The notes under the pieces are model-generated. The model had not been told where the DNA came from. It was given only the letters and a program-made list of their open reading frames with translations, and did no database searches. Shown here piece after piece: positions 8,974-58,762 of a DNA stretch of 64,000 nucleotides. The stretch lies in assembly GCA_046350775.1 (NCBI GenBank), contig JAXLZS010000001.1, forward strand, positions 223,930 to 287,929, given 5' to 3'. The DNA is from Minisyncoccota bacterium (GTDB taxonomy: Bacteria; Patescibacteriota; Minisyncoccia; Phycocordibacterales; UBA5272). A program made the translations under genes and the position numbers. Each line of letters begins with the position of its first letter. The stretch's first letter is position 1.

Positions 8974-9291
8974 TTATATTCCTAATTCTAATTTTAATTC
9001 TTCGCTTGGCTCCCAAGGCTCATCGAAATCTAATTCTACTTGTGCTTCACCAAAATTAAGAGTATTAACTTCTGTCTCTACTTGAGAAATAATATCATCA
9101 GCAAATGGACACATAATACTTGTGAGGGTCATTACTACTTTTACATATTCATAGACTTTGAAATCTTCGAGATATTCCCCTAATTCTATCTTTCTAATTA
9201 GTCCGAGCTTTACAATATCAATACCGAGCTCTGGATCTATGACTTTTTTGAGAGCTTCTGTGATTTGTAATTTTATTTTTTCTTCATTCAT
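8974..9291 (-). CDS. sufT: SufT / DUF59 (MIP18-family) Fe-S cluster assembly protein
   Basis: 105 aa with the DUF59 pattern ...VIDPELGIDIVKLGLI...VVMTLTSIMCPFADDI (conserved Cys). It lies directly downstream of sufC. Confidence 0.65.
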   Translation of the reverse strand: MNEEKIKLQITEALKKVIDPELGIDIVKLGLIRKIELGEYLEDFKVYEYVKVVMTLTSIMCPFADDIISQVETEVNTLNFGEAQVELDFDEPWEPSEELKLELGI

Positions 9292-9293
9292 AA

Positions 9294-9995
9294 TTAATTT
9301 ACAATATTTAAAATTCCATCTTTCATCTCAAAATGTTTATCTATTTTTACTAGATCAGCAATATCTTCTCTGTGAGAAATAATACAAAAAGCTGTCTCAT
9401 AATTTTTATTAAAATCATTTATAATTTTAAATACTTTTTTAATCGCTGCTTTATCTACACCACTATCAATCTCGTCCATAAAGACAAATTTTGGCTTTAG
9501 AGCAAAAAGATGTAGCATTTCTGCCTGCTTCTTTTCTCCTCCAGAAAATCCAATATTAAGATCTCTTTTTAAGAACTCTTCATCGATACTATACTTTTTA
9601 CAAAAATCTAAAATTTCTTTATTAAAATCTATTACTGATAGATTATTATTTTCGTCTACATTTTTATAAGATCTATAGAGAAACTGTAAAAGATTTACAC
9701 CTTCTATTTCTGGTACATGTTGGAGTGATAGATAGAGACCATTTTTTGCTATTTCAAAAGTTTTAAGATTTGTGAGATCTATATTTTCATTTTCTTTTTC
9801 TAAAATTATTTTTCCATCTACTATCTCATAATTTGGATGTTTAAAAATAGCTGACAAAAGAGAAGACTTTCCAGATCCGTTTTCACCAGTGATTGATACT
9901 ATTTCTCCTTTTTTGAGATCAAAAGTAGCATCAGAAATAATTTCTTCACCATTTCCCACTATTTTAATTTTTAGATTTTGTATTTTTAATTGCAT
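9294..9995 (-). CDS. sufC: SufC-like Fe-S cluster assembly ABC ATPase
   Basis: Walker [14 protein letters not shown] signature FSGGEKKQAEM, Walker B FVFMDEIDSGVD, at a size typical of SufC. It is flanked by sufU and sufT. Confidence 0.75.
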   Translation of the reverse strand: MQLKIQNLKIKIVGNGEEIISDATFDLKKGEIVSITGENGSGKSSLLSAIFKHPNYEIVDGKIILEKENENIDLTNLKTFEIAKNGLYLSLQHVPEIEGVNLLQFLYRSYKNVDENNNLSVIDFNKEILDFCKKYSIDEEFLKRDLNIGFSGGEKKQAEMLHLFALKPKFVFMDEIDSGVDKAAIKKVFKIINDFNKNYETAFCIISHREDIADLVKIDKHFEMKDGILNIVN

Positions 9996-10000
9996 ATTTT

Positions 10001-10399
10001 TTAATTTTTATTATCTATATTTTTGAGTGCATTTTCGAGACATTTGTAAGAAAGAAGTGCACAATTGACTCTACTTGGAGAGATTTTGACTCCTAGCAAT
10101 TCATATATGACTGAAGGAGACCAGAGCTTTAAATCTTGGAGACCTATTCTATCATTTTTAATTTTTTCTGTCATCATACTCATCGCAGCCTGAGAAATGG
10201 CGCATCCAGTACCTGTCCAAGTGACATTTTTTATTTTTCCATTATCCATATCTAAAAATATCTCTGCTCTGTCTCCACAATCTACATTTTCTCCTATTCC
10301 ACAAGTCTCGCACACTTCAAAACCTCTCTCGACTTTGTTTTTCGGATTACGATAATGCTCCAATATGTTTTCTTCGTATAAAAAATCTAAATTATTCAT
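10001..10399 (-). CDS. sufU: SufU/IscU-type Fe-S scaffold or sulfur-acceptor protein
   Basis: Conserved Cys motifs: CGDRAEIFL, then GTGCAISQAAMSMMTE, which parallels B. subtilis SufU GEGCSISMASASMMT. Confidence 0.75.
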   Translation of the reverse strand: MNNLDFLYEENILEHYRNPKNKVERGFEVCETCGIGENVDCGDRAEIFLDMDNGKIKNVTWTGTGCAISQAAMSMMTEKIKNDRIGLQDLKLWSPSVIYELLGVKISPSRVNCALLSYKCLENALKNIDNKN

Positions 10400-10517
10400 A
10401 TATAAAAAATAACATAAAAAATAATTTTATTAGTATTGACATTTTATGAGATATTTAATAGTATAACTGTAGCAAAATTGCACCTTCACAATATTTCAAA
10501 CCAATAAAATTTTAACA

Positions 10518-11573
10518 ATGAGTAATCAACTAAAAATTGACGAGACAATACTTAATACAGTGATTGATCTGGTCGTAAAAAAAGACCAAAAACAAGCAAT
10601 CATTTTTTTAAACACTTTTACACTTACTGAAAAGGATTTAATTTTTACACTTCTTCTCGAGAAAAGAAAATACTACATTGAGAATGGTAATTATGAAAAA
10701 GCCGAAAAACTTTCGGAGTTTACAGGATCCGAACTCAGTGACAGTGAAAAAGAAAGGCTTATACAAAAAAGGATTGTCGACGGCATGTATCATCTTGAAG
10801 ATGTGGTACAAAAAATCAAAGAGTATTTTCCCGAAAAGGACAATGAATTTATCCTGCAGTTTTTTATCACCCAAAAACATTGGTACACAGCTTTGAGATT
10901 CACTAAAGATTCTGCCTTATTACTACCTGAATTTTTTGTAAGAGAACAATTACAGGTAGTAATAAAGAATGGCTATTTGTCTGATTTGTTATCAGTATTG
11001 CATTATATTGAAAGCGAATTAGGAGAAATTCGAAAATTAACAGCCAAAGAAAAAAACGTTTTTTTAGAAAATGTTAAAATTTTTTCTTTGGAAGATTTTC
11101 TAAATCTGGAAATTTTTCTCAACAAAAAATTAGATCCTAAATTACTCCTAACAAAAAGAATGCAAGCTGTAAAAGATGGCCAGTATGATCAAGCTGTGAT
11201 TTTATCTAAAATAACTAATAAAAAGATAAAGCCGGCTGAGCTGGAATTCATGTTAGACAAAATACTTGATAACTACTACAGTTTTTCTGATAACAGCAGA
11301 AAAGATGAGAGGAAAAGATTGGAAAACCAGCTTCCTCTAAATCTGGTCAAGCAAAAAAAGGCAACCTTTTTAAAAGCTAATATTACTGATGGCAACCTGG
11401 CAGGAGCAAAATTTTTAGCAGCCGAACTGGGAAGACAATTAAAAGTAGATGAGTTTAAAGAGATCCTCAGATATTTCATTTTTACTAAAAATGTAGATAT
11501 GGTCTCTAATATCATTAAAGAAATGACAAAAATTTATCCTGAAGAGGCTGCTAAGCTAGAAATATTAAGTTAG
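10518..11573 (+). CDS. Hypothetical alpha-helical protein on the opposite strand inside the suf cluster
   Basis: 351-aa ORF with no recognisable motif. Confidence 0.4.
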   Translation: MSNQLKIDETILNTVIDLVVKKDQKQAIIFLNTFTLTEKDLIFTLLLEKRKYYIENGNYEKAEKLSEFTGSELSDSEKERLIQKRIVDGMYHLEDVVQKIKEYFPEKDNEFILQFFITQKHWYTALRFTKDSALLLPEFFVREQLQVVIKNGYLSDLLSVLHYIESELGEIRKLTAKEKNVFLENVKIFSLEDFLNLEIFLNKKLDPKLLLTKRMQAVKDGQYDQAVILSKITNKKIKPAELEFMLDKILDNYYSFSDNSRKDERKRLENQLPLNLVKQKKATFLKANITDGNLAGAKFLAAELGRQLKVDEFKEILRYFIFTKNVDMVSNIIKEMTKIYPEEAAKLEILS

Positions 11574-34861: not shown

Positions 34862-35008
34862 AGTACTAGTTTGTATTTATATATTGATTTTAACATGAAA
34901 AAATAAGTGAAATTATAACTTGACAAAGATATTGTATTATGCTATACTGAGATTAGATAGATCTTTGTGAAAATTTCGTTATTTTTGTTTGAGTTTTTAA
35001 TCTTTTGG

Positions 35009-35053
35009 AAGTCATCAGAGTGATGAATTAATTTTATCTTTGTGATGACTTTC
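35009..35053. promoter_or_regulatory. Inverted repeat gaagtcatca...(24 nt)...tgatgacttt upstream of the compositionally atypical gene
   Basis: The arms match 9 of 10 positions. It sits in the 5' region of the 35087 gene; its function is unknown. Confidence 0.25.
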
Positions 35054-35086
35054 AAACCATTTAAAAACAATAAAAAACAAATTATC

Positions 35087-35974
35087 ATGAAAAAAATTTT
35101 TGTATTCTTCGCTTTGATTTTTGCAAATCTGATTACTTTCACCAGCTGTAAAAGTCCCATCTGGGACCGTGAGCCAGTTGATACCACTTATGCGATTGGA
35201 TTTCCTTTACAGGAATTCCACAAACTTGGTGAAGCTGGTGACACCGCAACTCAAAGGATGCTGGTCAACCAGTACAGAAAACAATTGACACGCAATGTAA
35301 TGTCGCACTATCAGTGCGTCACCAACGAAAAAAATGTTAAATTTGTTTTCGGATCCGGCAAAGTTGATAAAGTTTTGTCTGGTGATGGAAAAGCTTACGG
35401 CGGTAAATTTAAGAATGAATTAATTTTCATTATTGATGATCCGTGTGCTAAGGACACAGTATTCCTCGCCTGTGGCAATGGAATGCTTTCACCGATTCAT
35501 TGGTCAAGCCAGTCCGACTGGGGCCATGCTGAAAAATGCAGGTTTGTAGTGGAAGATGGTCAATCTTTGGCATACTTCCTTCCTCGATTGAAAGATTGGG
35601 GCGTGCGGGCTGAAGAATTAGGTTTGCCGATCGCCAACTCTAAAGGTAAAATTGTAGATGATAAAATCTACATGAATTATCTTGGAAAATGGTGGAGTGA
35701 TCACCTATTCAAAGGCGATGTGATTGATCTTTGTGAAAAGAAAATCACAAACCACTCTGGTCAAAAGGTAGACTTCGAAAGAAGACTACTGGAGACCAAA
35801 AAAGCAAATCGAGCGATCCTTGATGCAAAAATTATTGAAGTGAAATATAAACTTCAAAAAATTTCCGCACTGCATCCAAAAGGAAAGCCAGCGAAGCTGG
35901 CTAAGCAAAAAAGATTAAAAGAATTGAAAGCCGAATTATTTAAACTTCAATCCGAAAGGAAGAGGTTGAAATAA
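35087..35974 (+). CDS. Cys-containing lipoprotein with a highly basic C-terminal coiled-coil tail; GC content clearly higher than the flanks (likely horizontally acquired)
   Basis: I start the gene at MKKIFVFFALIFANLITFTSCKS (signal plus lipobox). The track ORF begins earlier, at 35042, which I take to be spurious leader. The body carries 5 Cys. The C-terminus reads KLAKQKRLKELKAELFKLQSERKRLK. The codon usage is G/C-rich (gaccgtgagccagtt...ggtgacaccgcaact), unlike the neighbouring genes. Confidence 0.6.
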   Translation: MKKIFVFFALIFANLITFTSCKSPIWDREPVDTTYAIGFPLQEFHKLGEAGDTATQRMLVNQYRKQLTRNVMSHYQCVTNEKNVKFVFGSGKVDKVLSGDGKAYGGKFKNELIFIIDDPCAKDTVFLACGNGMLSPIHWSSQSDWGHAEKCRFVVEDGQSLAYFLPRLKDWGVRAEELGLPIANSKGKIVDDKIYMNYLGKWWSDHLFKGDVIDLCEKKITNHSGQKVDFERRLLETKKANRAILDAKIIEVKYKLQKISALHPKGKPAKLAKQKRLKELKAELFKLQSERKRLK

Positions 35975-35991
35975 TTTCAGGAAAATTCTTT

Positions 35992-36015
35992 GGCGAAATG
36001 TCTCTACATTTCGCC
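35992..36015 (+). terminator. Hairpin ggcgaaatgt-ctct-acatttcgcc downstream of the 35087 gene
   Basis: Perfect 10-bp stem with a 4-nt loop, 18 nt after the stop codon. Confidence 0.5.
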
Positions 36016-36088
36016 ACACTATTTAGATTATAAAAATATTTTGTAGTCTAATCGTGTAAACAATATTGTTCATTAAAACCAAAATATA

Positions 36089-36799
36089 TTGCAAATGAAA
36101 AATTATTTTTTCTTTTTTTTACTTTTTTCTATACTTTGTTTTTCTTGTAAAAATAATGAGAGTAAAGACGACAAAAATCCTAAAAGGAAAAAAGTTGTTG
36201 GCATTGATGTTTCTCACAATCAAGGAAAAATCGACTGGGCAAAATTAGCTAATCAAAAAAATTATAAAGTAAAATTTGCTATTATCAGATCTACTATGGG
36301 TGATGATAGACAAGACAAAAACTTTACTTACAATTTTAGAGAAGCTAAAAGGTTTGGATTATTAGTTGGTACATACCACTATTATGATCCAAATGAAAAT
36401 AGTAAAAAGCAAGCTAAAAATTATTTAAGAAACTCAAAACAAGGAGAGAACGACATTCTTCCTGTGCTAGATATCGAGAAGCTAAGTAGAATTCAACCAA
36501 AAAAGAGACTTCTGAAAGGAATATCCAATTGGCTCCAAATTGTAGAAGAAGAGACTGGTTATAAACCAATAATTTATACCGGATTATCTTTTTATAAAGA
36601 TTATTTAGCAAAAGATTTTGCTGATTATCCATATTGGATAGCCAGCTATTCAGATCACAGGAATGGTGACGATGTAGTCTTGTCAGCTAATATACATCAA
36701 TTTTCAGAATCCAAATGGATTAAAGGTTTGCACAAGAAAACCAAGATTGATGTGAATGTAGTTGATACAGGAAGACTTTATCTTGTGTTGAGAAAATAA
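36089..36799 (+). CDS. Secreted or lipoprotein GH25-family muramidase (Chalaropsis-type lysozyme)
   Basis: Signal plus lipobox (LCFSCKNN), then GIDVSHNQGKIDWAKLA...KFAIIRSTMG...NFREAKRFGLLVGTYHY, the GH25 signature (GIDVS.yQG.IDW....FA.IKAT.G..Y.D..F......A...G...G.YHF). Confidence 0.75.
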   Translation: MQMKNYFFFFLLFSILCFSCKNNESKDDKNPKRKKVVGIDVSHNQGKIDWAKLANQKNYKVKFAIIRSTMGDDRQDKNFTYNFREAKRFGLLVGTYHYYDPNENSKKQAKNYLRNSKQGENDILPVLDIEKLSRIQPKKRLLKGISNWLQIVEEETGYKPIIYTGLSFYKDYLAKDFADYPYWIASYSDHRNGDDVVLSANIHQFSESKWIKGLHKKTKIDVNVVDTGRLYLVLRK

Positions 36800-36805
36800 T
36801 TCCAA

Positions 36806-36846
36806 AAAACCGGATCGTCGTAAGATGAACCGGTTGTTTTTTTATT
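36806..36846. terminator. Bidirectional terminator (aaccgg...ccggtt stem, T-run)
   Basis: 6-bp stem with T(8) downstream, between convergent genes. Confidence 0.45.
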
Positions 36847-36863
36847 TAATATTTTTATTTTCA

Positions 36864-37289
36864 CTATTTAACTAAATCTCCTAAGTAAAAATTTGGAAGT
36901 AATCCCTTTGCTCTTGGATCCATACCGTGTTGTCCATCAAATAATTCTGATCCGTCTTTACCACAGATAGCCAATATAGCATCTGCTCCGCCTGGATGCT
37001 TTGAAATGAAGCTAGTCAAATCATAGACTTTTCCTTCAATAGTTGACCAACAGCTATCTTTTGAATTATGACTTGAAATATCTGATAGAGTTATAGTTGT
37101 AGAAGCTTGACTTTGGACATTACTAGCGACCTGACCATTATCTAGATATTTATAAGAATTTCTACTTACTGATTTATTAAAAAATAAAACTCCCAAGACT
37201 ATTAATACTATTATGATGAAAATCCAAATTATTTTTTTCATATTGTTTTTATATATTATAAATATTATCTTACCATAAAAAACATTCAA
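36864..37289 (-). CDS. Membrane-anchored cytochrome b5-like heme/steroid-binding domain protein
   Basis: N-terminal TM, then WSTIEGKVYDLTSFISKHPGGADAILAICGKDGSELFDGQHG, the cyt-b5 HPGG signature with both axial His positions present. Confidence 0.65.
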   Translation of the reverse strand: MNVFYGKIIFIIYKNNMKKIIWIFIIIVLIVLGVLFFNKSVSRNSYKYLDNGQVASNVQSQASTTITLSDISSHNSKDSCWSTIEGKVYDLTSFISKHPGGADAILAICGKDGSELFDGQHGMDPRAKGLLPNFYLGDLVK

Positions 37290-41253: not shown

Positions 41254-41631
41254 ATGTACAACATTCTTAACAAAAAAATTGAAATTTCTAAATCCAGATG
41301 GGTAGCATTAAATGCTGTAAATTTCTTCCTGAGATTAAACCTTAAAAAGGAAATATATTTCCAGGAGACTACAATCAAAAAAGATAACGCCGGTTTTGAA
41401 ATAAGAAGCTTGTGCCTTCCAAATGATTTTGCTTTCTGTTTAAAAAACATTAAAGCAAACGTAAAACTTATAAAAGATAAAGGTAAACATGAACAAGATA
41501 TTTACCGTGTAGAAACAATATCAATTTACATTGAGGAGACTAAGCAAAAATTCTTTTTTGACAGAAGTGAGCTAAAATCAAATAAGGAAATGGAAAGTTT
41601 TATTATGCTACTGGAGAGTGGACAAAGATAA
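41254..41631 (+). CDS. Hypothetical protein
   Basis: 125-aa ORF followed by a terminator. Confidence 0.35.
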   Translation: MYNILNKKIEISKSRWVALNAVNFFLRLNLKKEIYFQETTIKKDNAGFEIRSLCLPNDFAFCLKNIKANVKLIKDKGKHEQDIYRVETISIYIEETKQKFFFDRSELKSNKEMESFIMLLESGQR

Positions 41632-58171: not shown

Positions 58172-58762
58172 TTAAGAATTATCAGCTAAAGTTGCCTTTA
58201 CAGTATCAACTTTATCGATAGTATTCATAATAGAGATAACCTGATCCTCGTATCCTTCAATAACAGACCCATTGTAATACCAAAGCTTTTTCTTAATGTT
58301 ATTATTTGAATAATAACGAGCTGTCTTTGGATTGGCACCACCAAGATTTCTACCAACAGTCTCGATAGCTTCATCGAAATTGTCGAATTTAATCTTAGCA
58401 GATCCCCAACCGAAAGGATTGGTATTGTAAGCAAATTTTCCACCTGTAGATTCACGCATAGCAATAGCTGGTAGGAAGTTGTATGGAAGACCATACTTCT
58501 CAGCTACAAGCACAAATTGCATTCCATGGCCAGCAAGAGGAGCAGATTTGCTTTCAAAGTAAGCGTCGATCTTATCAGCTTTTTGCTTTCTAAGAGCCTC
58601 CACACTTTGGTCTTGATCAGAATTAACCTTTAATTCTTTTAATTCAACTACGTTATTAGAGTTGGTTGAATTATCAGAAACTATATTTAACCCTAAAGTC
58701 GACAATGCGAGTACTGGAATAAACGCAGAGACGAGAAGAGTATTTTGTAGATATTTTTTCAT
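58172..58762 (-). CDS. Secreted lysozyme-like/peptidoglycan-hydrolase-like protein (family uncertain)
   Basis: Signal peptide, then ...LAGHGMQFVLVAEKYGLPYNFLPAIAMRESTGGKFAYNTNPFGWGS. The Glu-Ser after a hydrophobic stretch is reminiscent of the lytic transglycosylase / GH73 catalytic region. Motif-level only. Confidence 0.35.
   Translation of the reverse strand: MKKYLQNTLLVSAFIPVLALSTLGLNIVSDNSTNSNNVVELKELKVNSDQDQSVEALRKQKADKIDAYFESKSAPLAGHGMQFVLVAEKYGLPYNFLPAIAMRESTGGKFAYNTNPFGWGSAKIKFDNFDEAIETVGRNLGGANPKTARYYSNNNIKKKLWYYNGSVIEGYEDQVISIMNTIDKVDTVKATLADNS

Follow-up and report, generated by a model that had tools for sequence, protein, structure and literature searches.

A lipoprotein family of CPR bacteria whose foreign look is maintained and not recently imported

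Why does a single gene in the AT-rich chromosome of a candidate phyla radiation (CPR) bacterium look as though it came from elsewhere? The question is raised by a stretch of 64,000 nucleotides (nt) from a Minisyncoccota bacterium (contig JAXLZS010000001.1, positions 223,930 to 287,929; hereafter the window), in which an open reading frame (ORF) at 35087-35974 encodes a predicted lipoprotein and is followed on the same strand by a gene for a GH25 muramidase. A first-pass annotation of the window had noted that the lipoprotein gene is GC-richer than its surroundings and differs in codon choice, and had proposed that the two genes are a horizontally acquired module. We find that the compositional departure is real and that it is a maintained trait of the gene's family, not the mark of a recent import.

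Among the 62 window ORFs of at least 100 aa, the lipoprotein gene ranks first both in GC (0.394; mean 0.311, sd 0.030) and in GC at third codon positions (GC3, 0.379 against 0.231, sd 0.040; z ~3.7), with runner-up GC3 values of 0.333 and 0.287. The 40-45% GC first estimated by eye is slightly high for the whole gene but fits its core (0.42). In a 500-bp scan, the GC maximum of the whole 64 kb begins at 35139 (0.444; window mean 0.310, sd 0.037), and in a 900-bp scan the gene comes second, behind the gyrA region. Given that GC at the first and second codon positions is ordinary, the excess is synonymous, and amino-acid-driven GC bias, which had been offered as an alternative, is ruled out; an assembly chimera is likewise ruled out by the occurrence of the same arrangement in independent assemblies. 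The shift is also visible as a preference for C at codons ending in a pyrimidine (NNY), at 0.44 in the lipoprotein gene versus 0.18 in its flanks in the window and 0.66 versus 0.20 in one of the compared loci (L003). Two further window ORFs have elevated C at these codons relative to the mean of 0.19: an unannotated ORF of 125 aa at 41254-41631 (0.40) and an ORF at 58172-58762 encoding a secreted protein of 196 aa with a weak glucosaminidase match (0.34).

The RF1 of the window has its nearest matches in Pacebacteria, Nomurabacteria, and Paceibacterota entries, which places the source organism among standard-code CPR bacteria of the Parcubacteria/Paceibacteria type. We compared the window with a set of loci totaling 726 kb (L-numbers below). 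The check for presence or absence in relatives that had been suggested alongside the proposal of acquisition speaks against a recent origin: a homologue stands beside GAPDH, as in the window, in L007-L009, L001/L010, L011/L016, and L092, with the same compositional offset in L007, L001, L011/L016, and L092, in a common neighborhood that runs RpiB...GAPDH...two-component system...RF1...L31. The lipoprotein orthologues are 63-72% identical, similar to the neighboring genes; relative to L089, the lipoprotein is 72% identical and its neighbors about 61-86% (response regulator 71, histidine kinase 61, penicillin-binding protein 69, RpiB 74, GAPDH 85). Four-fold degenerate sites between orthologues are saturated, in that they agree no more than composition predicts, so each lineage has had time to reach its own compositional equilibrium. 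The GC3 of the lipoprotein gene nevertheless lies above that of its flanks by +0.08 to +0.15 in five lineages, following host GC3 in rank. An offset that remains constant despite saturated four-fold sites indicates that the composition is maintained and is not the residue of a recent transfer.

The alternative, that a foreign gene or an island of two genes arrived recently and has still to ameliorate in GC, would account for the highest GC3 of the window, for a pair of genes that lies on one strand amid a run of minus-strand genes and thus opposite to all its neighbors, and for the different site of the pair in L089. Against it stand the synteny in at least four related lineages, a divergence equal to that of the neighbors, the persistence over saturated synonymous sites of an offset that tracks host GC3, and a conserved promoter. 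Nor is there a boundary of the kind that mobile islands leave: no integrase, transposase, tRNA, or border repeat was found by the pair, the flanking ORFs are housekeeping or membrane genes, and there is no tRNA gene within 20 kb. In the clade of the window no allele replacement was seen, only relocation. Recent import is therefore already largely refuted, and we regard it as very improbable.

The family to which the lipoprotein belongs extends well beyond this clade. Most members sit in genomes that read UGA as sense, in which flanking genes carry 10-30 in-frame TGA each, and hosts of all three kinds (UGA=Gly, UGA=Trp, and standard-code) carry the family. Another 73 loci came from a metagenome scan; at each of the 65 further loci whose flanks could be measured, the GC of the family gene exceeds that of both flanks (0.40-0.54 vs 0.21-0.40), with a GC3 of 0.34-0.66 vs 0.23±0.065, and in UGA=Gly hosts the family gene is 0.1-0.25 GC-richer than both flanks. 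The avoidance of in-frame TGA is complete: none of the 1147 glycine codons in 58 non-redundant alleles is TGA, compared with 64% in 231 flank genes. The same GC-rich, TGA-free signature is seen in L015, a further recoded genome with a distant subfamily member, and in a tandem paralogue in L033, where a distant subfamily copy (9080-9841; P0187/P0150-like) lies directly upstream of a main-family copy (9965-10762) and both are TGA-free and GC-rich. TGA does occur exactly at the natural end of the protein in six alleles, four of which (L048/L053/L057/L066) then have TAG at once as a back-up stop, while two run on for 13-20 unrelated codons. Some other genes of recoded loci also lack in-frame TGA, namely an acetate-kinase-like gene (by eye) with TGA at 0/35 Gly codons and low GC3 (L055:18535-19746), a radical-SAM protein gene (L013:13086-14447), a region encoding a 502-aa M32-carboxypeptidase-like protein (by eye) and a 376-aa lipoprotein (L063:2002-4683), and a 375-aa RlmN-like gene (by eye; L019:4056-5183); these are candidates for recent import from standard-code donors.

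In rumen lineages, the family gene is replaced as a cassette. Many pairs of rumen loci have flank proteins that are 90-97% identical (DNA 84-89%) and alleles that are just 39-80% identical, for example L045/L085 (96% vs 43%) and L054/L058 (97% vs 58%). DNA homology ends 80-390 nt before the start codon and returns 42-69 nt after the stop, so the exchanged unit consists of the promoter, the gene, and the hairpin (~45 nt of 3' sequence), and this exchange explains why many copies are found on contigs of 1-3 kb. Within the cassette, the GC enrichment is confined to the coding sequence and hairpin, the upstream part having a GC of only 0.20-0.23, and synonymous sites between alleles are saturated.

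A neighbor-joining tree rooted on the distant subfamilies recovers the standard-code clade as monophyletic (98/100) and, in most replicates, places it several nodes inside the diversity from recoded hosts. This topology suggests one ancient transfer from a recoded CPR lineage to the ancestor of the Paceibacteria clade and vertical inheritance since; such a transfer across codes would have been possible only because the gene is without in-frame TGA. The sister group of the standard-code clade has a support of 51/100 in this tree, which was built by neighbor-joining only, and we count this against the transfer as reconstructed. The earlier description of the gene as horizontally acquired thus holds as a probable deep transfer and fails as a recent acquisition, given the syntenic homologues and saturated sites.

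One close relative of the window organism may use a different code. In L001/L010 (GCA_964635125.1, contig CAZWMQ010000001.1), whose RF1 is 86% identical to that of the window, housekeeping genes are apparently split at TGA, as in GAPDH (L001:5186-5863). Six of seven in-frame TGA in L001 (GAPDH, histidine kinase, RF1, and others) align to Trp of the window orthologues, and Trp positions in the flanks are divided between TGA and TGG (7:7); the controls L016, L007, and L089 have no in-frame TGA. We conclude from these alignments that the L001/L010 organism appears to read UGA as Trp (code 4); no tRNA was found in the 16.7 kb of the L001 locus. The family gene of L001 uses TGG only (TGG 5 : TGA 0). 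Reassignment of UGA to Trp has been listed for four other phyla, not Patescibacteria (Parks et al. 2026, PMC13462651), and this relative would add a fifth bacterial phylum.

The product of ORF 35087-35974 is predicted to be a lipid-anchored substrate of the Sec pathway and signal peptidase II. Its N-terminus, MKKIFVFFALIFANLITFTS-C21, has a basic n-region, a hydrophobic h-region, and a lipobox (..ITFTS-C21), of which S20 and C21 are each kept by 90% or more of 120 homologues; the signal-peptide region has weak matches to NF050142 (sub-threshold) and PF08139 (LPAM_1). Nineteen columns are invariant across the 120 sequences, including F126-L-A-C129-G-N-G132, N110, E111, D118, D211, and D214. The five cysteines of the mature protein noted earlier are present at 77, 120, 129, 151, and 216; C129 is invariant, and the other four co-occur or co-vanish across homologues, as expected for two optional disulfides. 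The C-terminal tail is as basic as had been described, with 22 K+R in 66 residues, a pI of 10.6, and a terminus of ...KRLK. An AlphaFold2 model (pLDDT 89.6) is helical at its N-terminus and beta-rich in its core, and the two long helices of the tail form a long hairpin.

On the sequence evidence this is an undescribed small lipoprotein family, seen only in CPR/Patescibacteria. Its 161 close homologues are all unnamed and without Pfam domains, and a 'Candidatus Paceibacterota' metagenome-assembled genome encodes an identical protein under the label hypothetical. A profile search of 1.84e9 cluster representatives gave just 67 matches, including unannotated distant lipoproteins of ~240 aa, and a pattern scan over GTDB species representatives gave five loci, all of them in Patescibacteria. 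Searches of Pfam, NCBIfam, PHROGs, and PADLOC with the window protein and distant members returned nothing beyond the signal peptide and no PHROG above noise; a profile search of PDB sequences with the family gave noise only, and a Foldseek search of the model against PDB and BFVD gave no match at E<=0.001, only the helical hairpin being matched. No paralogue was found within the window. A Bacteroidota origin, hinted at by a PG1828-like signal peptide, is ruled out by the five Patescibacteria loci of the pattern scan, profile matches to two giant HYR and AgI/II-type proteins were set aside as repeat noise, and a target of a diversity-generating retroelement was rejected since variation is spread over the entire gene.

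The features of the locus are listed in Table 1.

Table 1. Features of the lipoprotein-GH25 locus, in window coordinates
Feature	Position	Strand	Description
Sigma-70-type promoter	34920..34948	+	TTGACA, 17 nt spacer, TG-extended TATACT; 11/12 consensus positions plus TG extension
Structured 5' leader, ~137 nt	34950..35086	+	Fold -38.6 kcal/mol vs shuffles -21.9±3.2, z -5.3
Predicted lipoprotein coding sequence, 295 aa	35087..35974	+	Signal peptide/lipobox 35087-35149 to Cys21; core ~210 aa; tail residues 230-295
GC-rich stem-loop right after the stop	35991..36016	+	11 bp, -15.5 kcal/mol, z -4.6
Second hairpin, sequence-conserved (ACAYTATTCAG...TGATNGTGT)	36017..36057	+	Between lipoprotein and GH25 genes
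Predicted GH25 muramidase lipoprotein coding sequence, 234 aa from ATG	36095..36799	+	PF01183 E 1.2e-40; TTG at 36089
Terminator hairpin and U-run, then UUGUUUUUUUAUUU	36808..36845	.	-15.8 kcal/mol, z -3.2

Only four promoter sites with at least 11 of 12 consensus positions occur in the window (128 kb over both strands), and the one upstream of the lipoprotein gene is alone in combining a perfect -35 element with the TG extension. The arrangement TTGACA-17-TGnTAnAAT is kept in four lineages (the window and the orthologues in L007, L001, and L011), matches upstream of the family gene reach 12/12 in L003, L004, and L007 and 11/12 in L015 and L011, and near-consensus promoters precede the gene in most lineages. 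The leader and the intergenic region have no match in Rfam, and the function of the leader is one that we infer; its fold (34950-35090) sequesters the start region of the lipoprotein gene, and the leaders of L007 and L001 have another inverted repeat (ATTGGTT...AACCAAT) at the same place. The hairpin that the first-pass annotation had taken for the gene's own terminator does exist, but it is without a U-tract and was not called by the terminator scan. A stem-loop of other sequence stands at the equivalent place in L007, L089, L090, and L092, and in recoded hosts the first 50 nt past the stop are GC-rich as well (0.41). The second hairpin occurs once in the window and is alignable in all five lineages that carry the gene pair, with 5 of its 16 predicted pairs kept through compensatory changes; a strict pattern for it had no match in loci without GH25, but the L007 copy was missed too. 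This hairpin could be a GH25 leader, a processing element, or a palindromic operator. The terminator is common to the GH25 gene (+) and the convergent gene (-) of a membrane-anchored cytochrome-b5-domain protein (36864-37289; PF00173, E 3e-21).

The cytochrome-b5 gene is a conserved neighbor, with a FAD-linked oxidase gene beside it in L007, L089, L001, and L011. The oxidase gene is missing from the window, which instead has an MFS transporter gene and a small EamA-like gene between GAPDH and NrdD. In two recoded lineages, genes for homologous secreted proteins that resemble CAP/SCP-type proteins by eye (L003:5014-5853 and L004:6902-7678; 34% identity, E 3e-30) adjoin the family gene and are its only recurrent neighbors outside the GH25 clade.

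The muramidase is correctly identified in the first-pass annotation. The PF01183 match covers profile positions 1-179 of 180, PHROG endolysin families match the protein, and in an alignment with PDB 2WAG (E 1.5e-18) GIDVS/PVLDIE pair with GVDVA/PVIDVE and the DxE motif is aligned, so that the catalytic motifs are intact. Its lipobox is LCFS-C, its nearest homologues are in Paceibacteria-type CPR and next in Bacteroidota at ~42% identity, and its composition is native-like (GC3 0.23), as had also been remarked. In L089 the GH25 gene (10635-11360) is GC3-rich, at 0.38 like its lipoprotein gene, and the compositional trait can thus extend to the second gene of the pair. No promoter-like site was found on the + strand at 35975-36094, and given two conserved hairpins and no recognizable promoter of its own, the muramidase is probably produced by read-through and in smaller amounts.

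The pair recurs in five lineages (the window, L007, L089, L090, and L092). In the window, L007, and L092 it stands inverted, with the cytochrome-b5 gene on one side and GAPDH on the other; in L089 it shares the strand of its neighbors, RF1 and the response regulator. This difference in site and orientation indicates that it moved as a unit. To this extent the pair behaves as the module that had been proposed, but the family often occurs without GH25: no GH25 gene adjoins the family gene in L001, in L011/L016, or in any of the ~70 recoded-host loci, so the lipoprotein does not need the muramidase, and both the module and the enzyme/inhibitor pair also envisaged at first are weakened. An inhibitor or immunity partner that shields the producer from the adjacent muramidase would fit the conserved adjacency, the shared orientation, the probable cotranscription in five lineages, and the joint movement. 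We consider it improbable given these same solitary loci, the wider occurrence of GH25 homologues than of the lipoprotein in Paceibacteria, the lack of sequence or fold likeness to known lysozyme inhibitors in Pfam, NCBIfam, PDB sequences, and Foldseek, and the allele swapping and cationic tail, which suit an exposed contact protein better.

What, then, maintains the composition? The explanation that we rank first, while holding it tentatively, is that the product is an abundant surface lipoprotein whose gene composition is kept by selection tied to exceptionally high expression. CPR cells reportedly hold only tens of ribosomes (Luef et al. 2015), and a GC-richer, UGA-free mRNA may be selected in cells with so few of them; the resulting readability under both genetic codes would have made transfer across the code boundary possible, and the window's clade would have received the gene by the single ancient transfer described above. 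This explanation draws on the best promoter of the window, which is conserved, on the structured leader and the 3' hairpin, on the steady GC3 offset under vertical inheritance, and on the preference for C at NNY codons, which is shared by L31, the sole ribosomal-protein gene of the window (0.40, n=20). The usable high-expression references, recognized by eye or by Pfam, were S16, L31, and rubrerythrin only: queries with Escherichia coli sequences of ribosomal proteins, EF-Tu, GroEL, DnaK, AtpD, and enolase found none of these in the 726 kb of loci, where there is also no ribosomal-protein operon, and no data on UGA use by expression class were found in two papers on Gracilibacteria recoding. 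In other respects the references depart from the family gene: GC3 is not raised in L31, S16 in a recoded locus (L087) has a GC3 of 0.16 and TGA for 2 of 4 glycines, and rubrerythrin in recoded loci shows neither avoidance of UGA nor raised GC3; ribosomal proteins may, however, be poor markers of high expression in cells with few ribosomes. Several other observations weigh against selection for expression. The codon shift favors every codon with a C or G ending, CGG, CCC, and GGG among them, with no narrow optimal set, and codon usage is nearer to that of an unbiased standard-code gene of ~48% GC than to that of a translationally optimized one; the GC3 of the family gene is independent of host GC3 in recoded hosts (rho -0.21); other TGA-free genes there (radical SAM, DUF1599, acetate kinase, and an M32-type gene by eye) look imported and not highly expressed; and three independent allele groups accept TGA at the terminus while none accepts it internally, which fits a stop meaning of TGA for the family gene better than slow decoding of UGA.

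These observations lead to the explanation that we rank second and consider rather unlikely, in which the gene is a mobile cassette readable under both codes. A pool of alleles would move between CPR hosts of different codes, possibly carried by code-11-compatible phages or by natural transformation, only TGA-free, balanced alleles would survive, and composition would mirror the pool and not expression. Cassette replacement with sharp breakpoints is what this explanation predicts, and it accommodates the absence of internal TGA, the terminal TGA with its back-up TAG in four of six alleles, the unbiased standard-code codon usage, the decoupling of GC3 from recoded hosts, the presence of the family under all three codes, the at least one cross-code transfer indicated by the tree, and the description of the same signature for phages of these hosts (PMC10746230). 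It is opposed by the absence of any family member from 2.9 million viral contigs (IMG/VR), the contexts of the loci being chromosomal with no phage genes nearby, and by the absence of any locus with flanks of matching composition. All five GTDB loci are moreover in Patescibacteria, and all known hosts of the family are AT-rich, so the pool has no visible source of GC; saturated synonymous sites between alleles imply that transfers were not very recent; and the window's clade shows apparent vertical inheritance with the offset kept. GC-biased gene conversion at a recombination hot spot, which would push third positions to G or C and remove TGA, would be in line with the frequent allelic replacement at the locus and with the rise of both C- and G-ending codons. 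The enrichment ends at the coding sequence and hairpin, however, and leaves the upstream part of the cassette AT-rich, which makes gene conversion less likely; an absence of TGA from all 1147 codons is too absolute for a bias, and the offset persists in the standard-code clade, where no replacement was seen. We assign gene conversion a low probability. A more radical possibility is that the family has kept a standard-code-readable gene of balanced GC with a universal consensus promoter and a universal lipoprotein signal because cells other than its recoded carrier decode it, either after delivery to and expression in a standard-code partner or prey (T-DNA-like) or through shuttling on a dual-code phage as a host-conversion gene. 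The restriction of TGA to the protein end fits a stop meaning wherever the family gene matters, but we give this idea, with both routes taken together, only a very slim chance.

Under our preferred explanation of selection for expression, our best guess is that the lipoprotein is an abundant host-contact surface protein. It may be an exposed component of the envelope in contact with either the partner cell or the wall of its own cell, with an acyl anchor in the membrane, a displayed core, and a cationic tail that could bind polyanions (peptidoglycan-associated acids, lipopolysaccharide, or DNA, for example). Several properties taken together suggest an exposed protein that meets partner cells or phages: it is predicted to be lipid-anchored, its core is conserved, its cationic tail varies in length, its alleles are swapped, and its expression is predicted to be strong and solitary. 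In the window's clade, it would work at the contact site beside a muramidase expressed by read-through, and the two may act jointly on the peptidoglycan layer.

If the signature reflects expression, the family probably ranks, in Gracilibacteria/Absconditabacteria-type CPR and in one Paceibacteria clade, with the surface proteins of highest abundance and would be a prime candidate for the host-touching molecule of organisms about whose host interaction very little has been learned. If it instead reflects code neutrality, the family would show that genes can flow past a reassigned stop codon, and we are aware of no earlier chromosomal gene family that has stayed compatible with two or three genetic codes. 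On either reading, compositional screens for foreign genes will misread the family, and the conjunction of high GC, absence of TGA, and a consensus promoter provides a simple marker of a hypervariable locus that breaks CPR assemblies.

The proposed role can be set beside several known systems. Code-11-compatible phages have been predicted for Gracilibacteria and Absconditabacteria as hosts (Liu et al. 2023, mBio, PMC10746230), and like the family gene they lack in-frame TGA in UGA=Gly hosts, have a back-up stop near a terminal TGA, and are readable under either code. Unlike these phages, the family is a single chromosomal gene at fixed loci among TGA-rich host genes, has neither phage genes nearby nor an IMG/VR match, and is GC-richer than its host, a point not discussed in that study. 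The window's lipoprotein recalls lysozyme inhibitors of the MliC/PliC, PliI, and PliG types in being a lipoprotein encoded beside a lysozyme; it differs from them in sequence and fold, and most family members are without an adjacent lysozyme. The known inhibitors act, as far as we are aware, on c-, i-, or g-type lysozymes and not on GH25. The superinfection-exclusion lipoproteins Ltp (phage TP-J34) and Llp (T5) are likewise single, atypical in composition, and strain-variable, with the strong expression that we predict for the family gene, but the family has no prophage context, no PHROG above noise, and no PADLOC match, and it occupies one chromosomal locus across the clade. Braun's lipoprotein Lpp is similar in being monocistronic, with a very strong promoter, flanking mRNA stem-loops, and a helical C-terminal part whose basic end could touch the wall; there is no homology between the two, the family has a globular core of ~210 residues, and its abundance is that predicted by our explanation. 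Finally, antigenic loci that undergo allelic replacement and are maintained by diversifying selection share the divergent alleles in near-identical flanks, the sharp breakpoints, and the tendency to break assemblies into contigs of 1-3 kb, and the family is distinguished from such cassettes by an unusually conserved core and by a common composition and code signature that is foreign to every host.

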